From positions 64,046,001 to 64,110,000 of the forward strand of contig NC_043004.1 of NCBI RefSeq assembly GCF_006345805.1: a DNA stretch of 64,000 bases, in the 5' to 3' direction. The position numbers and the translations under genes are program-made. This document shows positions 2,072 to 61,682 of the stretch, piece by piece. This DNA comes from Octopus sinensis. Lineage: Eukaryota. Below the pieces are notes generated by a model, which was given only the letters and a program-made list of their open reading frames with translations, did not search any database and was not told the origin of the DNA. Within the stretch, counting starts at the first letter, position 1; each line of letters starts with the position of its first letter.

Positions 2072-2180
2072 ATCACTCGATGTGACACATCTTCTGCACC
2101 GCCGGATGCTCCTGAACAAGTTGTTGAGTGTCCGATCGTTGAGGGATCGATGGTAGAGGTGTCGAAACGATTGTCGTGAT
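2072..2180 (+). ncRNA. Degenerate type I hammerhead ribozyme fold, core mutated
   Basis: ATCAC [TCGATGT in place of CTGATGA] GACAC...GTGTC GAAA CGATTG TC GTGAT. Stem I ATCAC/GTGAT and stem II base GACAC/GTGTC pair perfectly; stem III is near-palindromic. Confidence 0.6.
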
Positions 2181-2218
2181 TAAGAATAAATTCTTGTATA
2201 TTTCATCTTCCATTTACC

Positions 2219-2263
<45 letters not shown>

Positions 2264-3038
2264 TGTGTGTTTGTGTGTGTATATATGTATGCATGTATGT
2301 TTGTATATACACACACAATATATGTATATATAAATATACACAAAATACAAACAGATACATATATGTGTGTGTGTTTGTATATACAGTTGTATATATCTAT
2401 CTATCAATCTCTCTGTTTGCCTTTGTGTATATATATATGTAAAAAATACAAACACACACACACACATACACACACATATATATGTGTGTGTGTGTGTGTC
2501 TGTCTGTCTGTATATATATTTGTTTATATCTGTCTATCAATCCCTCTCTCTTTTTAATCTTTGTGTGTGTATGTATATATATATACGCATTCATACATAC
2601 ACAAATACACACAATTTTATTAAGCACGATTAACATTAGCACAATTTTGAGATGGAAAAGAGACAGAAAATAAATAACGTGGCTCATATTCCAGAAAAAT
2701 CGCTAATCTACCAACTAGAAGACGTATTACATAAGAGAGCGTCTGCTCACATCTCTCGGTCTAATTATGTATTTGAATCTTTATTATTCTTTTTTTCCCC
2801 AATTTCTTTTGTACTCTGCAATTTTTATCTTTGCAAGATAATTGCTCGGGTACATGACTTAGCAAGAAATGTTGAACTCCGTATAGAAATATTTCAAATT
2901 ATATAGACTAATCTCCGAAGTCGGACATAACAAAAAGATGCCATTAAAATCATCATATATACACACATACATATGTAGGTATATAAATGCATCTACATAT
3001 ATTATAAACGCATGTATATGTATATATATATTATATAT

Positions 3039-3072
<34 letters not shown>

Positions 3073-3284
3073 ATATATAATATATATATATATATTATAT
3101 ACATTATATATATACATATACTTATATATATAAATGGATAATACATGCATGTACATATACATATGCACATGCATATGTAGAGACACACAGACACAAACTT
3201 ATACACATACACATAAATATGTGTGTGTGTATTATATATATACATATATATATATATACTGCATATATTGACATATATAAAATA

Positions 3285-3355
<71 letters not shown>

Positions 3356-3833
3356 TATATAAGATATATAAAATTCATATGCAATTTGTGCGAGTGGTGA
3401 GTTATTTTTCATTTATATAATTTTCTGTCTGTGCTGGTGGTTATGAAGACCTACATGTGTTAGTAGCTTTGTGTGTATGTTTTCGTTTCGAACATAATAC
3501 CTATGAATACGTTCTGTAAATGCTATATTGTACAGCGAAATTTGAAGTGGTCATTAGTTATATCCAAAGTGTAATGCGATATTCAGAAGTAATTTTCCAT
3601 ACATGTTCAGAACCACTATAACATATTAAGGAAAATGGTGTTATTGGGAAAAGTAATGTCGATCGATCTATCGTCTTACTCATTTTTTTCAATGGTCCTT
3701 CTCTTAAGTTTCTCTATGTATGTATATATGTCTATAAATGTATCCGTGTGTATGTGTATGTCTGCCCAGGGAGGAAAATATTCATCCATATATATATCAA
3801 TATAATATATACATAAGTATGTATGTATATATC

Positions 3834-3884
<51 letters not shown>

Positions 3885-5176
3885 CTTGGAACAAGATGGG
3901 TGACGTTCAATCATATAATAATATAATTAATATATGTATACACATGCATATATACATACGTATATGTACTTAATCTATACGTATATATATATATATATAT
4001 ATGCATATGTGAGTACAGCACGTCACGAAACGTGTACAACAAAAACGTACGAAATACACAAATGGAAAACAAAACAAGCAACATTAAAAAAATGACCCTT
4101 CATCAGTTGTTGACTGTTTTGTTCTCCATATTTGTTCTTCGTTCTTCGAAAGAATAGTTCATGTTCCATGTACTCGTGCTTCGTACTTTTTGCTGTACGC
4201 GTTCCGTACAACACCGCCGACTCCGCCTCTATCACGACTACAGCTCATACTATTTATGTCACTGCATTATTACCATCATTGTTCAGTACGTTAGTTCGGT
4301 ATGCTGGCTTAGTATTCAGTACCTCTTTCTCTCCCATATCCCCCTTTATCTCTCTCTTATTATTATTCCAATTATCACCATCTACACTACTACTTTTAAT
4401 AAAACATCCTTAGCTCTCACTAAATTACTTTGTCCTTCTCTCCCTCTCTTTTTCTTTCTCTTTCTCTCTATATCTGTCTTTGCCACCGCTCTCACCATCT
4501 TTATGCCTACTATTACTCTCACCCCAGCACGAGGAATAGTAGATGTGTCATTGAGTAGTGACAGAGGGGATCACTAACACACAAATTAGTTTTTGCATTT
4601 ACTATGTTAGTGTGTGTGTGTGTGTGTGAGATGAGATCCAGAGATTCTCAGTATAGAAGACACTTAGTAGTGCTCAAAAGATACGAATTTAGATTCTGAC
4701 GTCTTTACCGAGGATCGATTCCGCAAGGTAAAAAAATGGCTGTAAAAGAGAATATAGAGACAATTATGTGGATACACAAATTAAGTACATTAATTGTATT
4801 AAATATCTTAAATTATAATATTTAGGGTATGAAATATGAAATATGTATATATGTATACACGCAAAACAAAATGATGAACTTATAAGTATAAATGTATATT
4901 TATATTAATAGGTCCAACTTACTCAGAGTACAAATGACAGAAAAAATTGAAGAAAGGTGTTACAAGTTCAACAGCTGTTACTGAGAGGCTCGAAGATTCA
5001 TAATAATTTTGGTATGTGTAGTTCATCAAAATATGCAGCCGGCAATATTCCTGATGTTTTTTGTTTGTTTTTGTTTTTTTACATATCTAATCTTATCAGA
5101 GAACCCCTATTGTAATACCTGCCTCGTTGTAATACCTGCCTGGACCCATGAAATCATTTTCATCAAAAGATAACAC

Positions 5177-5362
5177 CGCAGGAGTGGCTGTGTTGTAAGT
5201 AGCTTGCTAACCAACCACATGGTTCCGGGTTCACTCCCACTGCGTGGCATCTTGGGCAAGTGTCTTCTGCTATAACCCCGGGCCGACCAATGCCTTGTGA
5301 ATGGATTTGGTAGACGGAAACTGAAAGAAGCCTGTTGTATATATGTATATATATATGTGTGT

Positions 5363-5411
<49 letters not shown>

Positions 5412-5473
5412 CGTGTGTTTGTCCCCCTAGCATTGTTTGACAACCGATGCTGGTGTGTTTATGTCCCCGTCAC
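5177..5473 (+). mobile_element. SINE family A, 3'-truncated
   Basis: Matches 688-1090 from CGCAGGAGTGGCTG to TGTCCCCGT. Confidence 0.9.
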
Positions 5474-5884
5474 TTTTTCAGTTAAATCTTTTTCAGGGTA
5501 AAAGCAGTTTCATCATTAAGATTATGGTATAACTAAGTACACATAACTCTAGCTCGCCTGGGCTAATCAGTCTACATTCAGGGCTACTCTATGATCCTTC
5601 AACGTTATAAAAGGTGGCCGGGGTACTAGGGGTATCATCTAATTTCCGTTTTTTCAGCTAACTCCTAAGCTTCTAGATTTATAGACCTATGAACTGCATT
5701 TTTAAATTTCCTATAAGTATTTGTTTTCGCACGTGTCACCAACAAAGATTTTTGAACGAAAAAACATACGGATAATAGTTTCCTTCAAAAATCGTGGTCT
5801 TCAATAGAAGACCACGCTAGGTTTACCAGATGATGACCGAAAACAAGCAAATCTGAGTATTGGAAATCGGAGCCTTTAAGTTAT

Positions 5885-5915
<31 letters not shown>

Positions 5916-6806
5916 ACATGCACACATATATATACAAATATATATGTGTGTGTATATATACATATATATAGATGTACCTACATATATACATATAAATAAA
6001 TATATATATATATATTTATATCACCTTGATCACCTTGACCGACTAGTCCGTCAGGCGTCCATTTGACACCGCTGGTCACAGCACGCTGTCCACTCCTCTC
6101 TGGATACTTTATAATAAAGCATATTACTCTACCTCTGGTATTTGAGTACTCTTTTTTCCACCTTGTTTCACATTTATGTGTTTTAGTCCGGTATACATAT
6201 ATACATATATATATATATCTATATATATTATATATATATATAACACTCGCACACATCAACGCATGAAATATGTGTATGGATATATATATATACGCACATC
6301 TATATTCAAATCATGCAAATATGTGTATGTATGTGTGTATGTATATGTATATATATACGTGTATGTGTATGAGCATATTTACGGAAGCATGTAAGTAGAT
6401 TTGTAGCTATAATTGGAAGTGCGTTGGCATGGAATTCAAAGCACATGAGTCACATCTGCAGCTACCCACCTAAATGATATCTATCTATCTATCCATCTAT
6501 ATATATATATATATATACATATATATACATATATACATACACACATACATATATACACATATATGTGTGTATGCATGTATGTACGCTTATGTATATAATT
6601 TTTTTATATACCACAAATATTACAAGTGGACGTACACATGCATATACATGTAACTCCTGCTCATTCTCTTCTTCGGTATATACGTGCACACATATATACT
6701 CGCCAAAAACGTGTATAGGCCATACACGCACACAGCACGCCCATGTGTATATGGAGATAACATGATAAATGTAATATACACACACATATAATGTATGCAT
6801 GTTCAT

Positions 6807-6893
<87 letters not shown>

Positions 6894-6931
6894 ATATATA
6901 TATATATATATGTGTGCATATATTATATATA

Positions 6932-7002
<71 letters not shown>

Positions 7003-7219
7003 CGTGTTTGTTTCCTCGGTCATCTAAGCATCTTGCCTTCATCGATTCAAGTTTGTTATCAATCCCCACTATCTAATTCTACATCTATTTATCTCGCAGT
7101 TTCGCTATATTTTCTATTCAACTTTTCTTTCTGTTTAACAAAGTACTTTACCATTCACACTCTTCCATTACATTTCCTTCTCCAGCTCTCTCGTTCTCTC
7201 CCTCTCTGTATCTTTCTCA

Positions 7220-7253
<34 letters not shown>

Positions 7254-7411
7254 GTCTCTCTCTCTCTCTCTCTCGCTCTCTACCTCTTTCTCTGTCACTA
7301 TCTTTCTATCCATCTCTATCTGTGTCTCTCAATGCGCCTTTCTTTATATGTCTATATATTTCACAATCTTTCTCTCACTCTCTCTTTTTGTTTCTCTCGC
7401 GTTCTCTCTCT

Positions 7412-7486
<75 letters not shown>

Positions 7487-7539
7487 GTTAATTCATATAT
7501 TTCTTCCTGTAGTTCCTGTTTTAATCTGGTGCTTGTTTC

Positions 7540-7791
7540 TATCATCATCATCATCGTCGTCGTCGCCATCACAGCAATGGTCGTAGCCACGATCGACGTC
7601 GTTGTCTTCGACATCTCAGCCACCGTCGCCGGAACTATCGTCATGGTTGTCGTTATATTATCATCCCATGATCACCATCTTATCGTTTTCATCATCATTA
7701 TCATCGACAGCCCCACCACCATCAACAACACCATCACCACCACCACCACAACCACAACCATCACCACCCGCACTACCATCACCACTTTCAA

Positions 7792-7831
<40 letters not shown>

Positions 7832-7847
7832 GTCGTCGTCGTCGTCG

Positions 7848-7878
<31 letters not shown>

Positions 7879-7983
7879 TCATCACCAACACAACAAACAC
7901 CACCGCCACAATCACAATCAACACCACCCGCACTACCATCACTGCCACCATCACCACTTTCAACATCATCATCATCATCATCA

Positions 7984-8040
<57 letters not shown>

Positions 8041-8105
8041 TCATCACCAACACAACAAACACCACCGCCACCATACACAATCAACACCACCATCGCCACC
8101 ATCGT
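7540..8105. repeat. Mosaic trinucleotide tract (CAT/CGT/CAC) with ~160-bp internal duplication
   Basis: CACCCGCACTACCATCAC at ~7765 and ~7926; CATCACCAACACAACAAACACCACCGCCA at ~7880 and ~8042. Confidence 0.85.
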
Positions 8106-8537: not shown

Positions 8538-8589
<52 letters not shown>

Positions 8590-12527: not shown

Positions 12528-13272
12528 AGGGTGTACCCAAAAGAAACAAGAATTTCGCAATATTATTTTGTTCCCTTAGTTTGACATTTTTACACTTGTA
12601 TTGCTTTCACAGTATTCACCATTTGAAGCAATGCTCCGGTCCATACGCGTTTTCCACTGTTCGAAGCAATGCTGGAACTCTTGCAGAGTGATGCCTTTTA
12701 ACGCCTCCGTCGTTTTTTCTTCTCTTACACATCTGCAAATTTCGTAGCATCAGATTTTGACACCAGTGATGACCTTCAAAACAGGTCCGGTACAACTTAC
12801 AGCTGTTTTTTTCATTTCAAGACATGCATTCAGTCGTGACTGCTTATGAGCTTCCGTGAGCAAATGAGCCACAAAGTTTGCTACCCCTCTCTTCATTTGT
12901 AATTCATCGCTCAAAATTCGTTGGCAGGAGCTCAGGGACACACCGGTCATATAAACAAGTTCGTCAATTGTTCAGTGACGGTCCTCGAAGATAAGTTCAT
13001 GTATTTTTATGTTTTCATTCGTTCGAGAGGTCGTCGGACGCCATAAACGAGGTTGGTCTTCAAGCGTCTAGTGACCATTAAGAAAGCGTGAAAATCACTA
13101 ATAAATTTGTGTTTTGCTCATGGCAACGCCCTTGTAATCTATTAGAAGCATGACAATTGTTTCAGCCGCCATTTTCCCCAGCAGAAAACAGAATTTTGCG
13201 GAATCATGCTTTCCGTCGTTTCAAGAATCGCAAAGATCGACGAACAGGGACGAAGCACTGCAAAGTAAGGAA
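12528..13272 (-). mobile_element. Internally deleted mariner transposon
   Basis: Minus strand reads KFCFLLGKMAAETIVML...LEDQPR.WRPTTSRTNEN, SCQRILSDELQMKRGVANFVAHLLT...VITG, and C-terminal FQHCFEQWKTRMDRSIASNGEY. TIR-like GAGGGTGTACCCAAAAG at ~12527. Confidence 0.88.
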
Positions 13273-13274
13273 TA

Positions 13275-14223
13275 CATAGACATGACAGAAGTAAATAGAC
13301 CACCCATAGAACATCGTTTTATGTTTATTTTAACTTGAAAACGTTTATGTTTTTTATTAATTGACATTCTTTTTCAGGTGCTATATGTGACTGTCTAATA
13401 CAAGTACGAATTTCAAAGAGGCCATATTGTGGGTCAATCTGAAGATGGACTTAATCAGAGTAGAATCGCAGGAAAACTTGGGATCCCGCTTTCTACAGTT
13501 AGTAGAGTGATAGAGCAATTCACCAGAGAGGAAGAAGAGTCAACATCACTTCGCCCATGTTTACCAGAGCCGTCTGACAAGACCCTTCACTTTTTTAAGA
13601 GAAGTGTAGAGGATAATCCTCGTCTCAATGCCTTTGACATAGCAAAACAATTTGATGTTAGTCCCAGAGCAGTTATCAGATATCTCCATAGACTTGGTTA
13701 CTATGGTAGAGCTGCAAGAAGGAAGCAACATCTCCGAACTACCAATATCAAGCGGTGAATAGATTGGGCCAGTGAGATAGAGAGAAACATAGATTCAGAC
13801 AAATATGTGTTCACATTGCAGAAGGATTCCTTCCAATCTTCTGCGGTGAAATGATTAAAAAAGACTCTTTATTTATGGAAGATAGGAATCCTTGTCAAAC
13901 GGCTAAAACGACCCAAGATTGGCTGGCAGAGAATGGCATTAAAAAGCTTCCATGCTTAAGCCAGTTACCAGATATTGAACATCTCTGGGGCATAATGAAC
14001 AGAACACTTCGTAAAAAGAACAAGAAAGCATTCCCATAGCCAGATCTTTTGAGATTACTGCTTGAACCCAGGCTAGAAATTCCTCAATACAATGTTCGTC
14101 AACTGATCAGTAGCTTGCCTAATAGAATCCTTGCATTGAAAATGGAAAAGGGTAAATCTACTAAACATTAAAGGGTAAATATAATGATTATAATGGTATC
14201 TATTTACTTCTGTCATTTTTGTG
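13275..14223 (+). mobile_element. Internally deleted Tc1-like transposon with both TIRs and TA TSD
   Basis: Ends CATAGACATGACAGAAGTAAATAGACC and GGTATCTATTTACTTCTGTCATTTTTGTG, each flanked by TA. HTH region [22 protein letters not shown]...YYGRAARRK; decayed catalytic end FMEDRNPCQTAK...SQLPDIEHLWGIM. Confidence 0.9.
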
Positions 14224-14745: not shown

Positions 14746-16350
14746 TATTGTTGTGTCTGGGGAGAGTCATTCTCTTTTAGTGCCTTATTATTTAACACAC
14801 TCAATGCGGTGAGCTGGTAAAATCGTTAGCACGCCAGCCGAAATGTTGAGCGGTATTTCTTCTGCTTCTACGTTCTGAGTTCGAATTCCGCCGAGGTCGA
14901 CTTTGCCTTTCATCCTTTTGGGGTCGATTAAATAAGTACCAGTTACGCACTGGAGTAGATATAATCGAGTTAATCCGTTTGTCTGTCATTGTTTGTCTTC
15001 TCTGTGTTTAGCCCCTTGTGGATAGTAAAGAAATAGGTATTTTGCCTGTCGCAACGTTTTGAGTTCAAATTCCGCTGAGGTCGACCTTGCCTTCCGTCAT
15101 TTCGGGGTCAATAAATTATGTACCAGTAAAACACTGCGATCGATGTAATCGATTACCCCCTCCCCCAAATTTCAGGTTTTGTGCCTATAGTATAAAAGAT
15201 TATTTAACACACTCACCGGTAAAGTTTCCACTCACTTACTTTTGTAGCTCTACGGTTAATGCCAGGGTTAATCCTACATTCGATGCAGTTATCATTGGTA
15301 CATATGGTATTCCCAAAGGAGTACGTCCTACATAGTTGTGATCTGATGGAGTTCCTTGGCTTTTAAACAATCTTAATGTTGATTTTGGTCTCCTTCAGAG
15401 CTTTCCTAAATCTACGAGCTAGTTCTCCGTGGGCTGTGGCCTCTTCAAACATCACGCTTGATATTTATCGATTTTGTAGCACGTGTCACCCTGTTTGCTT
15501 TGTCACAAGCTCTTTGTATTCTAGTCCAGCTATTGCTCCTACATCTAGGGCATGTACCACAGGATTCATTACATATAATGTTATCTAACGTCTTTCTAGC
15601 ACCCCTGTATACTCGAAGTTCTGTACAGTATCTTTCGTTCCATATGATTTGCATAGTGGCGACACGTTGTTCATTATGTTAACTAAATCTGCTATCAGTA
15701 AGTTGCATGGTGTGACGAAGCTGAGTTCTTGTGAACAACATATTTCGAAGCTATGGGTTTCATGTAATAGGACTGGAGGAGCTTCACTCTGTTGTTCACA
15801 GTCTCTAACCACAGTTCAGTACCAAGAAAGGGGAGTCTATTGTTGGGGTGCCTAGTGGGGTAATCTATAGTTACCCTGTTACTTTGCTCTCTATTATGAT
15901 CCTCTCATAATGCTCTCCATTATGAGCCTCTCAGTTTCTACGTTACCGTTACTAGAGTTGGTCTTAACTAAGATATTAATGTCGTCTACATACGTACTGT
16001 AAAGTAAAAGAGTTGTGGAATGTTCTGCCTAGGGTTGCTTAAGTTTTCTGTCCCACCAGGTCACAAAGAGGCTGGCCACATCTCCAGCTATACTGACAAT
16101 AATGGCTTCACCATGAACTTGTATGTATAGTTTCGGGTTAAACTTTATTATGTGGGTCTTCAAGGTGGCTCTTACGTTGCCTATATGGGATGTGCAATCA
16201 TTCCTTTCACTTGATTGTTGTTCTCAGGGTCCTGGGTAGGTACGGTCCAGCCACTCCAGAGCACAGCGGTGCTTTTCTTTACTGCTGAGGTGATGGTGGG
16301 TGGTCTTCCCCTCTGTGGCCTGGTGCGGCGGAATCTACTGAATTTATATA
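14746..16350 (-). mobile_element. Penelope-like retroelement relic (RT pseudogene), interrupted by a SINE
   Basis: Minus strand reads RRTRPQRGRPPTIT..., ATLKTHIIKFNPKLYIQVHGEAIIVSIAGDVASLFVTWWD (RT motif B region), LYSTYVDDINI (catalytic YVDD), YYMKPIASKYVVHKNSALS, LIADLVNIMNNVSP, VMFEEATAHGELARRFRKAL. Contains stops and frameshifts; no GIY-YIG domain retained. Confidence 0.85.
14804..15198 (+). mobile_element. SINE family B chimeric dimer with 17-bp TSD
   Basis: ATTATTTAACACACTCA at 14787-14803 and 15199-15215. Two family B bodies lie between, with different 3' tails. Confidence 0.9.
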
Positions 16351-16446
16351 TACATGTGTGTGTGGCGTGTGCGTGTGGTGTGTGTGTATATGTATGTATA
16401 TATATATGTATATATATATACATATATACATATATATATATGTGTG

Positions 16447-16483: not shown

Positions 16484-16773
16484 CTTAAAGTCAGTCTTTT
16501 ATACGCTAGGCCACTGGTGTTTAACTTGACGTTATTAAATTAATATCCAATTTTTTCACCCTCATTTTGACTTTAATTATAAATTAATATGTTCTCAAAC
16601 CGGCGTAAACTACTGCAGTAAATTACTTATGCAGTATTTATTTCCGTTAATTTAGAGCGCCAGAACGAGGGCATTTGAATGTAACTGTGAAATTAATCGG
16701 CCGAACTGTTCGTCTCTCTGACCTCGTGTTAATAGTTGGCGTGCAGTTCGACAAATTATATTTTTTATGACGT

Positions 16774-16849
16774 ACTCCACTGATGATCTGAGGATAGTTA
16801 TGTAAGTAAAATTACATAATGTATTAACGGTGAAACAATTGTATAGAGT
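16774..16849 (+). ncRNA. Type I hammerhead ribozyme fold (PLE/retrozyme type)
   Basis: ACTCCA CTGATGA [45-nt stem II containing TTATGTAA/TTACATAA] GAAA CAATTG TA TAGAGT. Intact core, palindromic stem III, 5 of 6 stem I pairs. Confidence 0.75.
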
Positions 16850-17001
16850 TAATCTATATTTTCGTTATTTTTCATTTATCCTGCTCGCTTACGTTCTTGG
16901 TGTGTTGAATTATTTCTTGAGAACAATTCTTAGTGGTTGAGTCCCTTTGCGGATCTATATCCAGCGTAAGAGCGTCCATATAGTGGATTCTCTCTCATAG
17001 T

Positions 17002-17044
<43 letters not shown>

Positions 17045-19340: not shown

Positions 19341-20222
19341 AAGAGGGGTGTTCATTAAAGATTTCTCCTGACCCACTTCTGGTTGTTGCAGGAAATATAA
19401 CTTGTACAGGTATAATTATACATGCATGTATATGTCACATTGTGAATTACAGCTTTCCACTAGTATTCGTTTGTCTTCTACGGCTGCTGAAGTGTCTTCA
19501 GGTGTGATAATGGAGGTAGTTGAATTCAGATCAGTGAACAGGTTCTTATACTTGAAAGGTCGTACAACAAAAGAGACTTTCGATGAGATGAAAGTTTGTT
19601 GTCACGATGCACCATCGTACGACATCGCCAGTTTAAATATGGTCAGACTTCGGTGGAAACTGCTCCTATTCCTGGACGACTACATTCAGCCATTGATGAC
19701 GATAACATGTATAAAGTGGAAGTTGCCATTTTGGAGGATCGCCGCATTACTATTTATCAACTAGCCCAAGAACTGAAGATAAGTGTAGGTTCCGTGCAAA
19801 AAACCAAAAAAATTATTCACGACCATTTGCACATACAGAAGTTGTCTGCACGATGGACTCCCCGGATGTTCAGTCATTTGCTCCTAGGTTCTTTTGGCAA
19901 TATGCGAAGAAAACGCGGACTCTTTCAACAGACTTATCACACCGGATGAAACAGGAGTCCATCGCTATGATCCTGAGACTAAAGTACCGTCAAAGCAATG
20001 GAAGCATGATAAATCACCACCTACAAAGCAGGATCGTGTCCAACCCCTAGCGAGCAAAGTGAGGCTCACTGTCTTTTGGGACCAGCGTGAGGTAGTGATG
20101 ATAAATTTTCTGGCAAAGGGCACCACAATTAACGCAGCGTATTATGCTACCCTGCTGCAGAAATTGCAGAACACCATCAAAGCAGAGAGGCGTGGCAGAG
20201 AGGTAAAGCCGTGGCCCCTGAC
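19341..20222 (+). mobile_element. Mariner transposon, 5' TIR and 3'-truncated transposase pseudogene (copy 1)
   Basis: TIR-like AGAGGGGTGTTCATTAAAG; EFRSVNRFLYLKG, EDRRITIYQLAQELKISVGSV, KLSARWTPRM (WVPR motif), LITPDETGVHRYDPETK, KVRLTVFWD, GTTINAAYY; frameshifted. Confidence 0.93.
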
Positions 20223-23395: not shown

Positions 23396-24281
23396 AAGAG
23401 GGGTGTTCATTAAAGATTTCTCCTGACCCACTTCTGGTTGTTGCAGGAAATATAACTTGTACAGGTTATAAATACATGCATGTATATGTCACATTGTGAA
23501 TTACAGCTTTCCACTAGTATTCGTTTGTCTTCTACGGCTGCTGAAGTCGTCTTCAGGTGTGATAATGGAGGTAGTTGAATTCAGATCAGTGAAACAGGTT
23601 CTTATACTTGAAAGGTTCGTACAACAAAAGAGACTTTCGATGAGATGAAAGTTTGTTGTCACGATGCACCATCGTACGACTCGCCAGTTTAAATATGGTT
23701 CAGACTTCGGTGGAAACTGCTCCTATTCCTGGACGACTACATTCAGCCATTGATGACGATAACATGTATAAAGTGGAAGTTGCCAGTTTGGAGGATCGCC
23801 GCATTACTATTTATCACTAGCCCAAGAACTGAAGATAAGTGTAGGTTCCGTGGCAAAAAAACCAAAAAAATTATTCACGACCATTTGCACATACAGAAGT
23901 TGTCTGCACGATGGACTCCCCGGATGTTCAGTCATTTGCTCCTAGGTTCTTTGGGCATATGCGGAAAACGAAAACGCGGACTCTTCAACAGACTTATCAC
24001 ACCGGATGAAACAGGAGTCCATCGCTATGATCCTGAGACTAAAGTACCGTCAAGCAATGGAAGCATGATAAATCACCACCTACAAAGCAGGATCGTGTCC
24101 AAACCCTAGCGAGCAAAGTGAGGCTCACTGTCTTTTGGGACCAGCGTGAGGTAGTGATGATAAATTTTCTGGCAAAGGGCACCACAATTAACGCAGCGTA
24201 TTATGCTACCCTGCTGCAGAAATTGCAGAACACCATCAAAGCAGAGAGGCGTGGCAGAGAGGTAAAGCCGTGGCCCCTGAC
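23396..24281 (+). mobile_element. Mariner transposon pseudogene (copy 2 of 19341-20222)
   Basis: Near-identical to copy 1, including the truncation point; differs mainly by single-base indels. Confidence 0.93.
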
Positions 24282-27314: not shown

Positions 27315-28774
27315 GAGGGATGTTGTTTGCCGCTCGCAGTCCCTTTGAACATATCATGAGTCTCGTGATATTTGTGTGGCTATTCTAGTTATATTTTTAG
27401 CTCTTATTTCTAGCAATTGTAGGTGCTATTTTGTACCCTTAATTATGTATTCTAATTTAATTTTAATTGCTTTAGCCACCTATATTATAACTTATTAAAT
27501 ATATCATATATTAATTTATCGTTATATCTTATTGTATGTATGTAAGTATGTATGTATGTATGTTATGTATGTATGTATGTATGCATGTATGCATGTATGT
27601 ATGTACGTACATATGTACGTATGTGTGTATGTATGTATGTATGTATGTTGTATGTATGTATGTATGCATGTATGCATGTATGTATGTATGTATGTATGTA
27701 TGTATATACTCGACTATATTCAATTTTCATCATTATATTATTTTTCATCAACGAAGTTTCTATCGGAAATAATGCAAAAGAGAGTATACGTTTACTTTTT
27801 AGCAGACACAGGCCTTTAAAATTCCACATTTAATAAGTTTTTTTCTTCCTCCTTATTGTAGGCAAACAATAGGTTCCATGCAGATGCAAGGTACCATATT
27901 CAAGTCCTTATCTTTAGAAAAGGACTTGAATATGAGTGATGGCTATCTGAGGCCAACAGAAAGCAAACCCTTGTTTACTAAAAGCACATTGGTTTATAAG
28001 TCAGTACAGTCGGTACAGAATTGTTGTGTTTACGTCCCCAGATGATGAAGTGGGCTAGCCCAGTACGTAGATATAGAGGGAGAATTCTGGACGTCAGAGT
28101 TGAGTAGAGGTTATGCGAACGTGCGATATAACAAGAATGATGAGAAACTTTAACGGGGAGTATACCTGCCCTGAAAACAAACAAATCGCGCAGTGGGGAA
28201 GAATCAATAATGAACAGTGATATGAATGGCCAGTGAGTGATTGAAATGACTCACGCGGACAGGCGAGTCATAAATACTGTATTTACTTTGTAGGTGAACT
28301 GTTATAACAATGCATAACAGATGACGAAAACCTTTCGGGTATCGGGAATTATTACACTCCCCTACACACCATATATACATTGCAGTACAATTTTATGTTG
28401 CCTAAAATATGTCGTGACCAATTATCTGGAATCATTTCGTGTGCAAAGATGCAACTCTCCAAGACTCAAAAATATTTAAATAAATATGTTAAATATATTA
28501 AAAAAGAGTAATTAAGAAACTTATTTGTAATAAAAATCTTAACTACAAATCCCTGAAACCATCTATAGTTAAGAGTGCGGTAGCGAATGCTTATAAATGC
28601 TTATTAACATGTTTTCGTCCCTGTTTGATTTGGTCCCTAGAATCATAATTATAATTCGTTCGTGGTTTTTAATTTATCTCTTGTCATATCCTTCACTGGC
28701 TATTCATTTGTGAGGGAGGGAATTGTTTGACCAGAGATCAATAGTATCATTTATCTTTTACATTTTATCTCTTA

Positions 28775-39140: not shown

Positions 39141-39229
39141 TATATATATATATATATATATGTAGGTCCCGGGTTGATTCGGGGTTAACCACAGTAAATA
39201 GGTACTCAATACATAGCAGAGTAAAATTA

Positions 39230-39551
39230 ATTTATTATATAGAAGGAGCTTCTACAGGACTAGAACTGTTTCATTCAGAGAAATCTTCAGGAAGCTAGTT
39301 AACAAGAATTGTATTGGCATTATACATTTAGGCAGGTTTAACGGGTGTTGGTGGGGGACTTTTTTGGGGGTAGGCATAGCACAAAATATCATACTTCATA
39401 TTATGCCTACCCCAAAAAAGTCCCCCACCAACACCCGTTAAACCTGCCTAAATGTATAAATGCCAATACAATTCTTGTTAACTAGCTTCCTGAAGATTTC
39501 TCTTGAATGAAACAGTTCTAGTCCTGTAGAAGCTCCTTCTATATAATAAAT
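39230..39551. repeat. Foldback inverted repeat (~149-bp arms, ~23-bp spacer), PLE-terminus-like
   Basis: 39230-39378 is the near-perfect reverse complement of 39402-39551. Confidence 0.95.
39484..39534 (+). ncRNA. Minimal type I hammerhead fold (mirror copy on the minus strand at ~39247-39298)
   Basis: AGCTTC CTGAAGA TTTCTCTTGAAT GAAA CAG-TTCTAGTC-CTG TA GAAGCT. 6-bp stem I, intact core, weak stem II (TTC/GAA), 3-bp stem III. Confidence 0.72.
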
Positions 39552-40076
39552 ATATATATATATATATATATATTTGTATATATATATATACAAGTATCCG
39601 TGCTGACGAGCGTATGAATCTGTGGCTGTACAATTGTAACGGTGCTTGCATACGTCTTTTACAGTGTGCGTGGTGCGTGTATTCATGTGTTTGCGTCAGC
39701 GTCATTGTTTCTTATCAAAATGTGTGTCTGCACGAAAATATATATATGGATTTCCATTGGGTGTGTTTATGACTGCACATGAGTGAAAATGAGAGCCTTA
39801 TCTATCTCTCTATCTATCTATCTATTTATCTATCTATCAGCCTATCTACCTACCTATATTTCTATCTATCTATCTATCTATCTCCATTTTCTTGGAAAAC
39901 AAAAACAATGTTCTCTTCTAAACACTACCCCTAAAAAGCATCCGTTTTATATAAATGAACAAGCTGTTTGTACATTCACAAAATTCTATTTGACAATTTC
40001 AAGAGGAGACCGAAAGCGCTAATAATAATAAGGAAATAAAAGGATTTTTTTCCAAAATTCTGACGACTTTTTTCTC

Positions 40077-40567: not shown

Positions 40568-41101
40568 GAAACGTATCCCATAAAACTCAACGAATTTGTT
40601 AAGTGTGGAGAAGAGAAGATATTAAAACTTAAGAGAATTTTAGTTGATGCATGCGATCGTTTCACACAGCGATATTAAAACATGCAAATTCATGGTTGAA
40701 TAGAAATAATTAAATCAATTTGATTAAATTAAATTCATTATATATCACTGTTCTCCTCAGCGCAACAGTTGTAGTTTATACCTAGCTGGACTCTGATTCT
40801 TTTTTATGATGCTCGTATTTCTCATAAGGATAAATATGAATATCCAAAATCATTCTCTGCCATTTCATTTATCATGTCTTCTATAATAACTTTTTGTTTA
40901 TACTTCTTGCACTGAGGAGAACAGTGATATATAATTAATTTAATTTAATCAAACTAATTTAATTATTTCTATTCAACCATGAATTTGCATGTTTTAATAA
41001 CGCTGTTTGAAATGATCGTATGCATGAATTAAGATTCTCTTAAATTTTAACATCTCTTCTCCATTTTTAACAAATTTGTTGAGTTTTGTGGGATACCTTT
41101 C
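40568..41101. repeat. Foldback inverted repeat (~195-bp diverged arms, ~140-bp spacer)
   Basis: 40568-40765 is the reverse complement of 40907-41101, with scattered substitutions. Confidence 0.93.
40908..41024 (+). ncRNA. Type I hammerhead fold with 90-nt stem II (mirror copy on the minus strand at ~40648-40764)
   Basis: TGCA CTGAGGA GAACAGTG...CGCTGTTT GAAA TGATCG TA TGCA. The 8-bp stem II base pairs fully (two G:U); the mirror copy has a perfect CGATCG stem III. Confidence 0.75.
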
Positions 41102-41248
41102 CATAAATTCACGTAACACACCATATTCTAGTATTATTTGCATATTTGCAAACTTACGCCAGTAAGCTACCAGCAGAATATGAAGAATCTATATTAGAAA
41201 TCGCTTTTTGGAGTCCTTCAAATTAAAGGACAAAATATAACTCAAACT

Positions 41249-41309
<61 letters not shown>

Positions 41310-42402: not shown

Positions 42403-42413
<11 letters not shown>

Positions 42414-42925
42414 CATTAAAAGGCTTCCAAATAAAGAAGCGAGTGCTAGATACACACACTGGTAATAATAATTTATTTTTATTACCCTATTTACTATGTT
42501 TAAATATTGCTCGATAAATTTTTACCGGCATCCTCTCTGTCGCCGGGTATGATTTGCGTCTGCGCTCTAATCTGAAAAGTTAGGGTATATAGATCGTTAG
42601 ATTTGCACGTGCTTCTAACGGTATGTACATCTCGGATTACAAAGGCTTCCTGCTGATGATTCTGGCCTTGGCAGATAAATTCTATTCATTTGCAAAAAAA
42701 AAATGATGAAACCGCGGTACAGGATTAGCTGAGTTGGTAAACGTTTTTGATTTTCATCCCTTTCATGAATGTATCCCCTTTTTGTGTAATTAGCACTCGC
42801 TTCTTTATTTGGAGGCCTTTTAATGTATTTATATATGAATAACATATAGTCTAACGACTAATTCGTCTTTTGTGCTAGACCACTGTAATAATAATTTATT
42901 TTTATTACCCTATTTACTATGTTTA
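42403..42925 (+). mobile_element. Retrozyme/PLE pseudo-LTR-like non-coding element in a (TA)n tract
   Basis: 41-bp direct repeat at 42462-42502 and 42885-42925 (423-bp period). 42403-42448 is an inverted copy of 42791-42836. Central hammerhead; (TA)n on both sides. Confidence 0.75.
42648..42724 (+). ncRNA. Type I hammerhead ribozyme fold
   Basis: TCCTG CTGATGA [48-nt stem II region] GAAA CCGCGG TA CAGGA. Perfect stem I, intact core, palindromic stem III, predicted GUA cleavage site. Confidence 0.8.
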
Positions 42926-42963
42926 TAGAAATATATATATATATATTATATATATATATACAT

Positions 42964-54773: not shown

Positions 54774-56389
54774 CGGACATGTTTCGCTTCGGCCCCAAAA
54801 TGCTAGTTTGACTTTTTTCGGAAATACGTTATTCTATAAGAACTTTCACGAACGTTTCCTTAAATAAATATTATTATTTCACCGTGTCTAGAAGGTAGCA
54901 GTACGTGTGGATGTTAAGGATTACATCTCTTGCAACAAAAAGTTTCACCATATCATAATTTTAAAGTATTTTAATCAAAGCAACATCAAACACGCGTCCA
55001 TTGAACTGTGTGAAGTGGTAGGATGGGAGAGTGTTCCGCGGGGCAACGACGTTTTGGAGCTGCGGTTACTCTTGTCTCAACTCAAATATCACCTGGCATA
55101 CTACTACCGGTGTCAGTTTTAGTTATGGAGCAAGCCTAATAGACGAATACGATAACTAAAAATAGTGGGACAGCAATTACGACACAGCAGCAACAGCCTA
55201 ACATTGACAAAAGTAAGAAGACCAACTGCAGCCGCAGCAAAAGTAACAACTGCAACATGAGCGACGACAAGCACAACGACGGCAGCAACGAACGCAGCAA
55301 CACCGACAGAGTACAAAACAATATCACTACCTCCAAACATATGAATGATTCGAACAGCAATAATAGCAAGCCTGAAGGCTGTTCGATATTGCTTCGCTAC
55401 TATCCGTTAGAAATACGTCACCTGGAAACAGCTACGAAGATACAAGTACAGCTTTCCATGATGTATAGCAGGACCATCACCATATCTGTAGAGTAAGACC
55501 CTTCTGCGAAGTTGAAGTCTTGTTTGAGACTGAGACCTCACAGAAAAACCCTCAGTGGTCGCTCGTAGCGATGGCTTCTCTCTCTTCCCTACTTATTTTG
55601 GAAGATGGGTGGTAAAAGTATAATTACCGGGAGTGGGGTCAACAGAGCTAGATCTCTGAAATAATTACCTAGGATTACATTATTTAAAGTGGTGCATCAT
55701 TTTTGTTAAAGACGGTATAACGTGGTTGAGTGGGATTTGGCTTGTTACTTCGAGGGGGCGAATCAGGGACGTAGGTACAGCCTCACTGGCTCATGAGAAT
55801 GTTATTTCGTAGAGTAGTTTTATCTTCATATCAAACGTAGTAGAAGAGCTCTGTATTATAGGTGGTCTAATTGTGACCATAATGTCTGCCTTGGTCTGCG
55901 TATGTTAGCAAGGCCGAGCTCTTCCATTGGCGATATTGATGATGATGACTATGACGATGATTCTGCTGTTAATGATGAAGATAATGATGATGATGATGAT
56001 GATTATCATCATCATCCCCACCACCATCTCCAGCAACACTAGTAACCCCAACACCATCATCTTCGACATTGTCATCGTCGTTGGCGTCAGCAGCAGAAAC
56101 ACTGAATACGAGCCAGCACATGTATCCAAAATTAGTGTCAGAATATTTTAGTGCTTCACTGTTTCCGCAATCGAAAAAGACGACAAAAAAACACTGTGTT
56201 TCAATGCAGAAATTGGAACATTTTAGAAAATGTCAGTTTGTTGCAAATTGTCTGATTTTGCATCTGAAATCGGATGGATCAACGCTGAAGGAAAGAAAAA
56301 CATGCATCTGCTGTTGATAATGAACGCGCTAACATGGACATTCCATCAACGTTAAAAGAATGTGTCTGTTTGTCGTTTATTTTTTAAAT

Positions 56390-56645
56390 GGTTCAGTCAT
56401 TGAACGGTGGCCATGTTGGCGCACTGTGTTTGGATTTAGTCGAACAAATCGACAACCAGTTGTCGATGGTGGCGGGGAACAAACAGACTCAATAACACAC
56501 ACAAACGAGTACGCACGCATAAACATACACATACACACACAAAAATACATACATGCATACCTACGTGTATATTTATATATATATATACATATATATATAT
56601 TTATATATATATATATGACATGCTTCTTTTAGTCCAATATATATA

Positions 56646-56740
<95 letters not shown>

Positions 56741-56852
56741 CATATATATACATATATATATATCCATACATACATATATAAATATATATATATATATATA
56801 TAGGTGGTGCTATTAAGTTAGACATGGCCGAAACCTATCAAAGTATCAAAGT

Positions 56853-56886
<34 letters not shown>

Positions 56887-57066
56887 CGACATGCTTCTTT
56901 TAGTTTCTCTCTAGCAAATCCACTTGCAAGACTTTAGTCACCCTCAAGCTGCAATAGAAGGCACTTGCCGAAGGTGCCATGCCATGTAGCGGAACTTGTC
57001 AAAGGTTCCTCTACATGGCATGGCACTATGTGGCTGATAACCACGCTTCTTACACACAGCCACCCT
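56390..57066 (-). mobile_element. Old SINE family A with expanded internal (TA)n
   Basis: TTCAGTCATTGAACGGTGGCCATG at the left; AAATCCACTTGCAAGACTTTAGTC..CACTTGCCGAAGGTGCC..ACACAGCCAC at the right. Confidence 0.7.
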
Positions 57067-58173
57067 ACCATTATATATATTTAGAACCTTACAGAGACTC
57101 CATATAAATCTTTTTCAAAGGTGGAAGACGAACTAAATAACGCCTTCAATAACATCGTGTAAATATTGGAGATTAAATAAATCCTAAGATAGAAAAATGT
57201 TGATGCTATTGCTGTAGATGATGTTATGGCTATTTTTATTGTTGTTGCTGTTGTCGTTATTGCTTGTGATAATGTAATTCTAACTTATCTCAGATTCAGC
57301 CGAACTGAAGATATTGCATTTGAGACTGGCTTGTCTTCTCTATTTAGCCATCTGGTATCCAGGCTCTAATCAATATGAAACTTTCTCTAAACAGCACCGT
57401 CCGATGTGGGAAAGATTTGACTGCTATTCCTTGCAAGTCGAGATTTCTTCTTTAGTGCTGTCCATAATGCCGATGATGGTGCTGGTGGTGGTACTGGTGG
57501 TGGAGGCGGTGGTGGTGCTGGTGGTGGTGCTGGTGGTGCTGGTGGTGCTAGTGGTGGTGTGGCGCTGCTGCTGGTGGTGGTGATGGTGCCTAAGTTGTTG
57601 GAATTGGTGTTTGGTACAAGGTAATCTCTGATCTGACAGTTCATTAATTTAAAATACTGAATTTATAATAATTTTGCAATTTTTTTCTTCATTTCAGCCA
57701 TTAGTCAAGAATCACCTTCTACAGTGTAGCATTACTTTCATTTTTTAAGAACCTGCTGTAGTTGATAAGAAGATCTGATTCATATAACCTTCAACATGAG
57801 GTTCCTTCAACCGAAGGACAGCACCAACTTTCCCCATATTGATAGTTCTCGTATAAACCACACTAATTTACATTTATGTAAAGTTGTCCTTATTTTATTT
57901 AATTATTTGAATAAATTTAATATTTGGTTAATTTAGTGAGTGTTGGCCAAGGTAACCACACCTGTTTCGGAAAAAATCGGTTACTCGAAAAAGGCTTTGG
58001 AACCAAAGGTTCCGCGAGATCGACACTGTACCTATATTGATAGCCTTGGTGTCTTAGTTGTTTTCTATTAGATTATCACCGACTGAGAAAACCTATGGAA
58101 TTAAGAACTTGTGACTATGACTACCCCGTACTTTCGTCTCTCAGGTATACGTGTCATTATCAATGTGACAAAG

Positions 58174-58380
58174 CCAGCAAGCTGGCAGAATTGTTAGCAC
58201 GCTAGATAAAATGCTTAGCGGCATTTCCTTCCGGTTTCACATTCTGTGGTCAACTTGCTCCTAGTTCAACTATGCCTTTCACTCTTTCGTGCCTGATGAA
58301 TTAAGTACCAGGCGAGTACTGGGGTCGATGTAATCGACAAACTTCCTCCCATCAAAATGTGCTATAGTATAAAATTTCTT
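58174..58380 (+). mobile_element. Diverged family B SINE
   Basis: GCTGGCAGAATTGTTAGCACGC..GCCTTTCAC..AATTAAGTACCAG..CTGGGGTCGATGTAATCGAC. Confidence 0.8.
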
Positions 58381-59844
58381 ATAGGCTTTCTTAAGGAAGT
58401 GCAGTACGATATGAAGCAAACTTGGATATTATTTCCAACAGGTCAATACCCGCACAATAGCAATTCTGAAGGCGTTTATATAATTTTTCGTCTGTTGGTT
58501 TTTGTTTTCTTCTATTATGCATTTTTTTTTTTCGCATGGGGATTTTAAAAAAAACTTGTAATTGTTTAGCTCAAAGGATATTTCAATGTTATCGACGAAA
58601 TATAAAGGTTCCTTATAATGGGTAGCGGTTTGGGGGTAAGGAAAAGAAACCTATTGATGCCATTGATAGGAACATAGAAATGAATTCACATATAAAGATG
58701 AACATGTTCATACACACATTCATAGATAAACGCATGTGCACACGTACGAATGCAACTCATATTACTCTGACACAGACATATACTCACACATATACACCCA
58801 TACATATACACACATATGTATGTGAGAATATAATATAAATGTATATTTATATTTATTTGCATTTATATTCATATATATGGATTAGTAATTTATTATTACA
58901 TATATATATATATATATATAGAAGTACATACAGCTACACTTCACATAATCAAGGATAAACCAACGACATGTACTGCCCCCACATACACACATTAACACAT
59001 AAGCTTATACAATGTTGTGTTCGTACACATATACACGCATAAGAATCATAGAATGTTAGCGGTTTCCAATATTTAGAGTAGCCATACTAAAAGAAAAAGA
59101 CAAAGATGTCAAGTAAAAACCTTTGATAAAAACAGGAATAAAATTTCAAATATAAATATAAAGGAAATCAATGGCAAAAATTGTAACTAAAACAGTCACA
59201 GATTTAAAGAATTAAGTTCAGATTTAACTGCTTTCTGATGTTCGATTTTGATACAATCAATGAAAAAATAAGCCGAGAAAAGCTGCGAGAAATCTTATCC
59301 AAAGACCTCTATATTGGCAATTCCTGCGTTCATTATATTCCATAACAGATGGTTTGGTTATCAGGAATGAAAAATGGACGAACGCTTATATCGAAAAGTA
59401 AAATATGCATATGTATGCATGCATGGGCTGTTTCTGTCTGTGTTTGTGTGTGAGTACGTTTATGTGTGAGTGTGCGTACGTATGTGCTTCTGTATGGAGA
59501 GAGCGCTTTGTGTGTGTGTATTTGCATGTTTGTGCGTATAAACATACATAAGTGTGTGCAAGTATATATATATATATATATATATGCATAGATTCAGAAA
59601 TATAGTTTATATATATGTGCATGTATATATATATATATACATGCATATATATATAGATATATACATGCATATATATAGATATATACGCATAAATAAATGA
59701 AAATGTAAGAATATTGGGAGATATGCATAGTTATATATACATATATATATGCGTGTGTGTGAGAGTATTTATATATTCACATACATATATATATACATAT
59801 ATGCGTACATACATATATATCCATATATATAAGTAGATACATAT

Positions 59845-59877
<33 letters not shown>

Positions 59878-60215
59878 TATACATATACATACATATATAT
59901 ACATGTATATACAATTAGTAAATAAATAGAAATATTTCACAGCGTTCGATTAAAAAAAATATAGGATTTTTAGACGTGGTGGAATAAAAAAATCATTTTT
60001 TAATGGAAGTAATAAAAATAATTTACCAAGAATCTTTATATATAAGAAGCATTATTGAATTGTCAAAGAAAATAAAGAAAAAAAAACTTGATTTCTTTAG
60101 CTTGTGTATGTGATAAAGAATGAAACATCGAATTCTTCTCCAATTTTTTATGGTCGACTACTGCTTCTAACTCTTGCTCTCTTACTTCCATATCCCTCTT
60201 TCTGTATCTCTGAAC

Positions 60216-60288
<73 letters not shown>

Positions 60289-60298
60289 TGCGTGTGCA

Positions 60299-60329
<31 letters not shown>

Positions 60330-60567
60330 GTGTGTGTATACACATTATACGTACCCTCATATATGCACATTTATATATATATATATATATACACACACAC
60401 ATATATATATATATACTCTTACTAATTTTCTTACGGTTACCGTTATTTACATATGTATATATGTATACATATAGGTACACACGTATGCCTATATATGCGT
60501 ATACATAATGTCATTTTTACGATAAAATACTATTGTCTTCAATTAAAATAATGCAAGATAGTATATT

Positions 60568-60609
<42 letters not shown>

Positions 60610-60808
60610 CTCTATGTATGTATATATATATATATCTATATATGTGGGGAAGTGAATATATATATATATATAGATATATATAGATAGATATATATATATA
60701 TATATGTGTGTGTATATATATATATATATGTCTGTATGTCTGCATATGCAACTACGTTAATTACAAGTACACATAACGAAAATATATACGTGTGCATATA
60801 CATAAATA

Positions 60809-60840
<32 letters not shown>

Positions 60841-61358
60841 CATATATACATATATACATGCGTACACACGCGTGCTTGCAAGCACACACCGACACGCATT
60901 TACACACACACACACATATATACACGATTCATCATTTCAACCTGGACGACAATGATTTACGTTGGTAGCTCCGTGCCTTGCCAGATTGTTTTACATTCAG
61001 CGGGCTTTTTCTAAAGGCTGTAAAGAAATATGAGGGAAGAGAGGAAGAAACCAAATAACAACAGACGGAGTTCTCTGATTGATTTTTCACAATCTCGAAG
61101 CAGGAGGTAGAAGAAGATGTTTGTAAAGGAAGTTCCTCTTATCTCCATGGATAGAACCTTTTTCTCTGGAATTGCTGCAAAATCGCTTCTTATGTAATGC
61201 AGTACATAGATTGTAATGGACCTGTGAAATAAATTAATTATATATTAAATTAATGTTTCAAATGAGACCGTGTATATTGCTGAGAGTTAAATATTTCTAG
61301 CCACCTATGATATATACATGCATACATACATACATACATACATACATACATACATACA

Positions 61359-61390
<32 letters not shown>

Positions 61391-61450
61391 CATACATACA
61401 TACATACATATATATGTATGTATGTATGTATACACACACACATATATATA

Positions 61451-61682
61451 TATATAAGAAAAATAAAAACGGAAAATACGCACACTTACATGGTTATAGT
61501 ATAATTTTTAATGTATCGACCGGTTTCATGAAACAATGTTTAATTTATATGAAAATATATTTTTTCTTAAGAAGAAAATGGGTCCATGTTGTTGAAACCG
61601 GTATCGAAACCGGTCGATACATTAAAAATTATACTATAACCATGTAAGTGTGCGTATTTTCCATTTTTATTTTTCTTATATA
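61451..61682. repeat. Foldback inverted repeat (~77-bp arms) beginning at a hammerhead 3' half
   Basis: 61451-61527 is the reverse complement of 61606-61682 (one mismatch); the right arm begins GAAA CCGG TC GATAC. Confidence 0.9.

Follow-up and report, generated by a model that had tools for sequence, protein, structure and literature searches.

Hammerhead motifs beside (TA)n tracts in Octopus sinensis: probable ends and small derivatives of Penelope-like elements

Hammerhead motifs in the window

The window, a stretch of 64,000 nucleotides of Octopus sinensis contig NC_043004.1, carries a series of hammerhead motifs, the relic of a Penelope-like element (PLE) reverse transcriptase (RT) and several non-coding repeats (Table 1). 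A descriptor search for the exact order CTGANGA...GAAA...TH with complementary stems I and III retrieves loci 16774, 39484, 40908 and 42648. The preliminary description listed five loci of this type I order, of which these four have the exact core, but the fifth, at 2072, reads TCGATGT in place of the canonical CTGANGA ascribed to it. Locus 2072 has stems I (5 bp), II and III as well as a properly placed cleavage triplet; its core differs at three of seven positions, and the locus is retrieved solely under a relaxed core that was widened after sight of it, was applied without shuffles and yields four chance-looking matches among ten. The half motif described at 61606 proves to be a 3′ half only, made up of GAAA, a palindromic stem III, the cleavage triplet and one strand of stem I, with no CTGANGA upstream.

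Both strands of the window together hold four motifs when no stem I mismatch is accepted and five when one is allowed; these counts include an inverted second copy at 39290 and correspond to three and four independent loci, respectively. Dinucleotide shuffles contain 0.12–0.33 motifs on average, and none of 100 shuffles attains the observed count in any of the six settings, which excludes the equal motif frequency in shuffled sequence that had been named as a refutation. In all six motifs that were folded, the hammerhead fold lies 1.2–7.2 kcal/mol above the minimum-energy fold. Rfam at the gathering score gives no match in the whole window, and at E ≤ 10 it gives neither hammerhead nor twister at loci 42648 and 2072; among the best 150 of 315 matches of the E-value scan, matches of microsatellites to miRNA models dominate. 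A tRNA gene search of the window found none.

The minus-strand copies at 39290 and 40760, the second half motif at 61527 and the decayed candidate at 39603 are absent from the preliminary description, which also overlooked the head-to-head inverted repeats at 39484, 40908, 42648 and 61606. The 39603 candidate escaped the motif descriptor. A 100-nt segment lies upstream of the motif at 2072, and its partner lies downstream of the motif in its own region. A hammerhead-like 3′ half at 13163 on the minus strand, a short way upstream of a Tc1-like ORF, has no 5′ core and was set aside.

Table 1. Positions of the features in the window
Feature	Position	Strand	Remarks
Segment shared with 39863-39962	1649..1749	+	100 nt; 73%, E 3.5e-8
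Hammerhead-shaped motif, non-canonical core	2072..2180	+	80-nt branched stem II; activity doubtful
Distinct repeat	14804-15198		17-nt target duplication
Broken PLE RT-thumb-linker relic, Neptune-like	15258..16351	-
Non-coding island	16484..17003	+	520 nt; flush with TA tracts at both ends; no inverted arm
Shared head motif opening the 16774 island	16494-16516	+
Type I hammerhead	16774..16849	+	45-nt stem II; U.U base; one stem I mismatch
Inverted pair of ~150-nt PLE-like 3′ ends	39162..39549	.	148/153 columns identical; 68-nt tail on left arm
Second copy of 39484 hammerhead, inverted arm	39247..39296	-	descriptor
Compact type I hammerhead	39484..39534	+	12-nt stem II region; 4-bp stem III
Decayed hammerhead candidate	39596..39751	+	exact CTGACGA; 7-bp stem I; 124-nt stem II region; poor stem III
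Head-to-head pair of ~197-nt ends	40568..41254	.	176/198 identical; 141-nt spacer; ~150-nt tail on right arm
Second 40908-type copy, inverted arm	40648..40764	-	A15.1-U16.1 pair broken
Type I hammerhead	40908..41024	+	90-nt branched stem II
Non-coding hammerhead element	42410..42930	+	TA tracts at both ends; self-comparison and contig copies
Inverted 47-nt arm of 42648 element	42410-42456	-
424-nt unit of 42648 element	42457-42880	+
Type I hammerhead	42648..42724	+	48-nt two-helix stem II; palindromic stem III; predicted cut after 42719
Head motif common to 42648 element and 16774 island	42865..42885	+
Tail of 42648 element (unit restarting)	42881-42925	+
Inverted pair of 73-nt ends	61457..61740	.	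72/73 identical; ~60-nt tail

The 424-nt non-coding unit and the 16774 island

The element at 42648 is the one locus that was compared with other copies. The contigs aligned to its unit number 77, 387, 215 and 72 in the four sequencing runs and bear species labels A, B and C; segment 42826–42879 has the deepest coverage in all four runs. The sequence beyond the 3′ end of the unit is a repeat of the first part of the body, 424 nt upstream, and the loose ends found before 42457 in X1, X4 and X10 match the unit's own end. The presence of this end directly before 42457 in other copies, combined with the 424-nt repeat, indicates a closed non-coding loop. Record 1 of X1 runs from the unit's end to 42550, beyond the 46-nt internal repeat. 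The 46-nt repeat within the window suffices to explain the joint that goes back 424 nt in X10, a run that may be RNA. None of the aligned contigs covers the whole unit, and the head-to-tail junction is found in short contigs only. The longest stop-free stretch has 37 codons on the ribozyme strand and 80 codons on the opposite strand. A circular fold of the unit is only mildly stable: against 25 shuffles apiece, z is -2.05 for the unit and -1.78 for an unrelated repeat.

Among the 40 of 72 substitution rows listed, 16 lie in the 77-nt hammerhead, none of them at the 11 core positions, an absence that is not significant by itself (P=0.063). In contigs of three species labels, stems I, II and III of the hammerhead together display four compensatory pairs with changes on both sides (simulation P=2.5e-5, with related subfamilies counted as independent sites), and one X1 contig seems to bear both stem I changes (equal depth, consistent offsets). 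The helix covariation expected earlier is thus borne out at this locus, and for the predicted ribozyme at 42648 these changes already refute a chance match. A reading of all motifs as chance matches in AT-rich repetitive DNA could call on the relaxed-core matches and the lack of an Rfam hammerhead, and is individually possible for 2072 and 39603; against the shuffle counts and the compensatory changes, it is scarcely credible for the set.

Judged from its sequence, the 42648 family, which exists in multiple variants, is non-autonomous and retrozyme-like. The 16774 island is plausibly non-autonomous as well: it is 520 nt long with TA at both ends, and opens with the same head motif as the 42648 unit. 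The two show no likeness outside this motif (208 of 300 shuffles score as high). The head motif has no match in viral contigs. Its five matches in metagenome contigs are regarded as chance (42–66% GC, no TA tract, no convincing hammerhead), and it was not found in the supplement of PMC8557442, where line breaks could mask a match.

Inverted arms, TA tracts and the RT relic

Head-to-head inverted arms with a one-sided tail are present at four of the six listed loci (39484, 40908, 42648 and 61606) and absent at 2072 and 16774. The differences between the two arms of 40908 include one two-sided, compensatory change. At 61606 both arms begin inside the hammerhead and carry its 3′ halves, at 61606 (+) and 61527 (−). 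Inverted arms and tails are the PLE insertion structure described in PMC8557442 and PMC3846280, and one-sided tails have been ascribed to internal RT start sites (PMC11167929); the connection to PLEs drawn in the preliminary description stands. Loci 39484, 40908 and 61606 may be just heavily 5′-truncated PLE ends in inverted pairs, from templates that may have been autonomous or non-autonomous. Of the several non-autonomous families proposed earlier, 42648 (a head-to-tail, ORF-less unit) remains and 16774 is plausible, but these three loci resemble truncated PLE ends.

It could be argued that every locus is such a 5′-truncated end (pLTR) of an autonomous PLE and that there is no non-autonomous family. 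Thousands of solo minimal hammerheads, with opposite-strand pairs 100–700 bp apart, have been described as truncated PLEs (PMC4209133), and 39484, 40908 and 61606 fit this pattern exactly. The closed non-coding loop of 42648 does not fit it, and a profile of the PLE endonuclease end has no significant match across the window (best E 0.27) and none at the islands. We regard this explanation as improbable when applied to all loci. No autonomous element bearing these ends was found.

There are 123 (TA)6+ tracts in the window, and for 44.5% of non-repeat positions the nearest tract is no more than 300 nt away. Because the tracts are so dense, closeness to TA is weak evidence; six random positions are as near to TA as the loci with P=0.012. 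The ends of the short inverted arms are more telling, as all four end 1 nt from a TA tract, vs ~1.8% of positions within 5 nt. In all four cases the longer copy carries a TA-like run at the point where the short arm breaks off. The TA association claimed for these loci thus holds for arm ends flush with tracts but is weak as plain proximity. Hydra and Naiad PLEs, among them octopus families, have been reported to insert into (TA)n (PMC8557442); TA targeting is real and already in the literature.

The TA tracts would be incidental if the loci were hammerhead satellites or retrozyme circles that multiply by RNA-level replication or local amplification without a PLE endonuclease. The 424-nt size and type I hammerhead suit non-LTR retrozymes (PMC7229834), TA tracts are dense, and three of nine copies of another repeat family also have an end no more than 5 nt from TA. 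The 42648 copy, however, is dispersed and not part of an array, both of its ends abut TA, and an inverted truncated arm with a tail is PLE-specific in the published descriptions consulted. Such an origin is accordingly very improbable.

The RT relic is real, but it spans less than the 14.7–16.3 kb first assigned to it, since the repeat on one side is a different one. An exhaustive protein search with it yields 207 relatives at E ≤ 0.001, while a word-indexed search finds none among 1011 candidates and Pfam has no match to the relic. Its linker has a C-x4-C-x2-C pattern that fits the CX2-5CxxC of the Neptune clade, in which GIY-YIG is C-terminal, and 10 of the 57 relatives of at least 300 aa contain the linker and the endonuclease start. 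By linker and relatives, the relic is probably a Neptune-like PLE, with Nematis as a possible alternative. A tblastn search with the 57 PLE relatives matches the window at the relic only. The earlier suggestion that this nearby RT mobilised the hammerhead elements is not supported: the relic lies on the opposite strand, a microsatellite intervenes, and self-comparison reveals no shared sequence.

Relation to known elements and proposed mechanism

Minimal type I hammerheads are known from PLE pseudo-LTRs, with solo and opposite-strand copies derived from truncated PLEs (Cervera and de la Pena 2014, PMC4209133). The window motifs share with them the type I order, the short palindromic stem III, the occurrence as solo copies or opposite-strand pairs and the marked sequence diversity among families of a single genome. 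The published descriptor calls for a stem II helix of 3–7 bp with a loop of 3–10 nt, whereas five of the six window motifs have stem II regions of 45–124 nt; a stem III of the 4-bp type is a further difference. That descriptor has no match in the 64-kb window.

Hydra-clade PLEs (Craig et al. 2021, PMC8557442) also insert into (TA)n. In their hammerheads (supplement File S2), stem II has an additional U.U or G-C at its base, and stem III is of the ACAG...CTGT type. The loci of the window have no ORF that could display the RT motifs (RWK, DKT) or the CxCX5C linker of this clade. By eye, the hammerhead style of the window, with U.U or G-C at the stem II base, resembles that of this clade, and 39484 shares both features; the Hydra-1_Obim hammerhead, in contrast, matches no window motif. 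U10.1.U11.1 is a tolerated natural variant (PMC3088659; PMC7229834). The Naiad PLEs of cephalopods insert into (TA)n too, but are described as having no canonical hammerheads (PMC8557442). Short motifs of the Naiad_Obim and Naiad_Ovul 3′ UTRs recur by eye, in order, at 2084–2168 of the window, and the likeness to 2072 is limited to these short words. A permuted hammerhead in cephalopod Naiad 3′ UTRs appears possible by eye in Naiad_Obim and Naiad_Ovul, but was rejected, as the order of parts is lost in Naiad_Esco.

Non-LTR retrozymes, like the 42648 unit, are non-coding head-to-tail units of 150–450 nt with a type I hammerhead; they have been proposed to be non-autonomous PLE derivatives, and dispersed monomers are known (PMC7229834; bioRxiv 10.64898/2026.07.22.740005). 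The 42648 copy differs in comprising ~1.1 units flush with (TA)n, in its PLE-type inverted arm and tail, and in a minimal, PLE-type hammerhead whose stem II is long.

The loci are likely to derive from PLEs that carry an endonuclease and insert into (TA)n, either as ends of such elements or as small derivatives. A unit of the 424-nt type would be transcribed as a multimer or circle, and an autonomous PLE would supply in trans the RT-GIY-YIG protein that binds this RNA. This protein would nick (TA)n and reverse-transcribe from internal start sites, leaving slightly more than one unit and an inverted truncated copy; 39484, 40908 and 61606 could result from the identical process halted early. Because stem III is short and palindromic, cleavage is expected to take place in the dimer, and a single copy in the genome is probably a weak ribozyme or a silent one.

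A bolder joint reading is rather unlikely. It would have several independent families of small circular-RNA retroelements, whose long and branched stem II domains escape standard searches, borrow a PLE protein whose RT would be primed by an internal UA-rich stretch pairing with nicked (TA)n. Locus 2072 would then represent a family related to Naiad in which a core not seen before (U3, C4, U9) is functional, and the compensatory difference between the 40908 arms would mark a switch between two template RNAs.

The concept itself is already published, namely truncated-PLE hammerheads, TA-targeting PLE clades and retrozymes as non-autonomous PLE derivatives, and the loci define no new class of element. 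New with respect to the literature are the long stem II regions missed by the published descriptor and the PLE insertion signature on a non-coding unit. The former suggest that genomic hammerhead counts are underestimated. The mobility of animal retrozymes has so far been deduced from co-occurrence and pLTR homology, and the life-cycle evidence of the 2026 preprint (10.64898/2026.07.22.740005) is by its own account limited and concerns mostly vertebrates. A non-coding hammerhead unit with the footprint of an inverted arm plus tail is direct structural evidence of mobilisation by a PLE protein.

Hammerhead motifs in the window

The window has a GC content of 34.8% and very abundant microsatellites. 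A type I hammerhead descriptor that permits stem II regions of up to ~120 nt finds exact-core motifs at 39490, 40912, 42653 and, on the minus strand, 39290 (a second copy of the motif at locus 39484); permitting one stem I mismatch adds 16780. These motifs exceed chance: in dinucleotide-preserving shuffles of either 200-nt blocks or the whole window, the mean was 0.00–0.33 motifs, and the observed count was reached in 0/100 shuffles in each of six settings. The order CTGANGA-GAAA-TH, which the preliminary description assigned to five loci, is present at 16774 (with the stem I mismatch), 39484, 40908 and 42648 but not at 2072, and locus 61606 is, as proposed, a half motif, the 3' half of a hammerhead. 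For the decayed candidate 39603, the minimum-energy fold buries the core in a ~100-nt near-perfect hairpin (39601–39701) and is more stable than the hammerhead fold by 7 kcal/mol. Two short palindromes in the window carry no hammerhead.

The stem II regions are 80 nt long at 2072, 45 at 16774, 90 at 40908, 48 at 42648 and 124 at 39603. This range of 45–124 nt sets the motifs, except 39484 with just 12 nt, apart from the minimal PLE (Penelope-like element) hammerheads described in PMC4209133, whose published descriptor gives no matches in the window. Loops of ~35 nt are listed in PMC8557442 for two spike-moss PLEs. Compared by eye, the window motifs share with the Hydra PLE hammerheads of that source a U.U or G-C at the base of stem II.

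Features of the window and their positions
Feature	Position	Description
Two-sided compensatory pair	42650/42722	stem I
Two-sided compensatory pair	42652/42720	stem I
Two-sided compensatory pair	42660/42707	U.U in window, G-C in many copies
Two-sided compensatory pair	42713/42716	stem III, palindrome retained
Hammerhead-shaped motif	2072	core TCGATGT; stem I 5 bp, stem II, short stem III, triplet in register
Hammerhead candidate	39603	core exact, stem I 7 bp, stem II region 124 nt, stem III decayed
Inverted arms	39484	identity 148/153 columns
Inverted arms	40908	identity 176/198 columns
Inverted arms	42648	identity 44/47 columns
Inverted arms	61606	identity 72/73 columns
~395-nt repeat	14804–15198	inserted in PLE relic (span 14787–15215), 17-nt target duplication
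~395-nt repeat, other members	10155, 41308, 46960, 53938, 58157	
~400-nt dispersed repeat	691–1090, 5177, 9227, 10725, 14383, 29172, 44106, 50474, 56868	9 copies or fragments
Tc1/mariner-like transposase fragments	13399–13755, 19372–20050, 23500–24100, 63542–63856	HTH Pfam matches at 3
Short palindromes	27895–27934, 56974–57026	

Covariation and structure of the 42648 unit

Contigs from four public sequencing runs, picked from 24 listed and carrying species labels A, B and C, were aligned to 42412–42928 (X1, 77 contigs; X3, 387; X4, 215; X10, 72). They hold numerous variants per position, and depth there does not equal copy number. The 77-nt hammerhead takes 16 of the 40 substitutions listed (40 of 72 rows). 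The helix covariation claimed earlier is borne out in this, the one family compared, by four two-sided compensatory pairs (P = 2.5e-5 under random placement of the substitutions listed). The stem III pair could reflect CpG transitions; the three outside stem III are at non-CpG sites. Also among the substitutions listed are one-sided repairs at 42704, 42690 and 42694 and one change, 42688, that breaks a pair, while the 11 core positions have none (P = 0.063).

The tail (42881–42925) repeats the start of the body (42457–42880) 424 nt upstream, and in three runs the loose ends of contigs before 42457 agree with the unit's own end; the unit is therefore arranged head to tail. This closed unit is non-coding, all stop-free stretches on the ribozyme strand being ≤37 codons.

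The start of the 16774 island (520 nt, flanked by TA on each side) shares a head motif with the 42648 unit, beyond which the two are unrelated. A 100-nt segment is common to loci 2072 and 39603, but its order relative to the motif is permuted between them, an arrangement suggestive of tandem or circular templates. Short words of 2084–2168 recur by eye, in order, in the Naiad_Obim and Naiad_Ovul 3' UTRs (PMC8557442 supplement, where Naiad_Ovul is labeled 'HHR_half_core'), and 2072 may be a Naiad-related end.

Inverted arms, TA tracts and the reverse transcriptase relic

Self-comparison of the window places 39484, 40908, 42648 and 61606 each within a head-to-head inverted repeat. In all four, with ends placed by inspection, the short arm halts 1 nt away from a (TA)6+ tract, and its partner extends ~60–150 nt further to a microsatellite. 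These are PLE-type junctions: a truncated inverted copy with a one-sided tail is described for PLE insertions (PMC8557442; PMC3846280), the tail being attributed to internal RT start sites (PMC11167929). Since the microsatellite itself defines the tail ends, only the short-arm ends are independent; for a given side, ~1.8% of non-repeat positions have a (TA)6+ tract within 5 nt. The closeness of the loci to TA is by itself a weak argument (P = 0.012), and unrelated repeat families have one end ≤5 nt from TA in 3/9 and 1/6 copies. At every short-arm end the longer copy carries a TA-like run, a hint of microhomology. The arms at 40568–41101 are merely 89% identical, with a two-sided C-G/G-C difference in outer stem I. 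Such divergence is beyond expectation for twin copies of a single template; the insertion may be old, or two different template RNAs may have been used.

The PLE reverse transcriptase relic reported at 14.7–16.3 kb is present at 15258–16351 on the minus strand (top tblastn E 4e-39), but 14804–15198 is a different repeat. Relatives of the relic have the layout described for Neptune, in which RT precedes a CX2-5CxxC linker and then GIY-YIG, with Pfam matches under curated cut-offs. A role of the relic as the mobiliser is not supported: its sole tie to the hammerhead loci is that PLE proteins were once present in the lineage. Among neighboring repeats, the ~400-nt dispersed family is SINE-like by appearance, and the Tc1/mariner-like fragments at 19.4–20.0 kb and 23.5–24.1 kb look like near-identical copies.

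Relation to known elements

Minimal hammerheads of truncated PLEs, solo and on opposite strands, were published in 2014 (PMC4209133), Hydra and Naiad families, including octopus ones, are listed with a (TA)n preference (PMC8557442), and non-LTR retrozymes and their origin from pseudo-LTRs (pLTRs) are in print (PMC7229834; 10.64898/2026.07.22.740005). Besides the long stem II regions, what differs from known systems is that the PLE footprint is borne by a non-coding unit. We found no published account of these families in the literature on octopus or cephalopod hammerheads, retrozymes, Penelope elements and non-autonomous PLEs. The 2026 O. vulgaris annotation reports 31 recently active Penelope-like families, with ribozymes absent from its main text (PMC13282606); the present families may be catalogued in that library, Dfam or Repbase.

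The unit would be transcribed as a multimer or circle and cleaved by the hammerhead as a dimer, and a TA-preferring PLE would supply target-primed reverse transcription in trans; a rotifer offers a precedent for trans mobilisation by way of pLTR sequence (PMC3846280). Ribozyme activity is not to be assumed, because in vitro cleavage by PLE hammerheads is poor (PMC4209133), insertion proceeded without need for one in an in vitro system (PMC11167929), and 8/9 Xenopus dimers assayed showed no cleavage (10.64898/2026.07.22.740005). The loci are real and mostly explained, in a variant form, as PLE pLTR hammerheads together with one or more non-autonomous families that resemble retrozymes.
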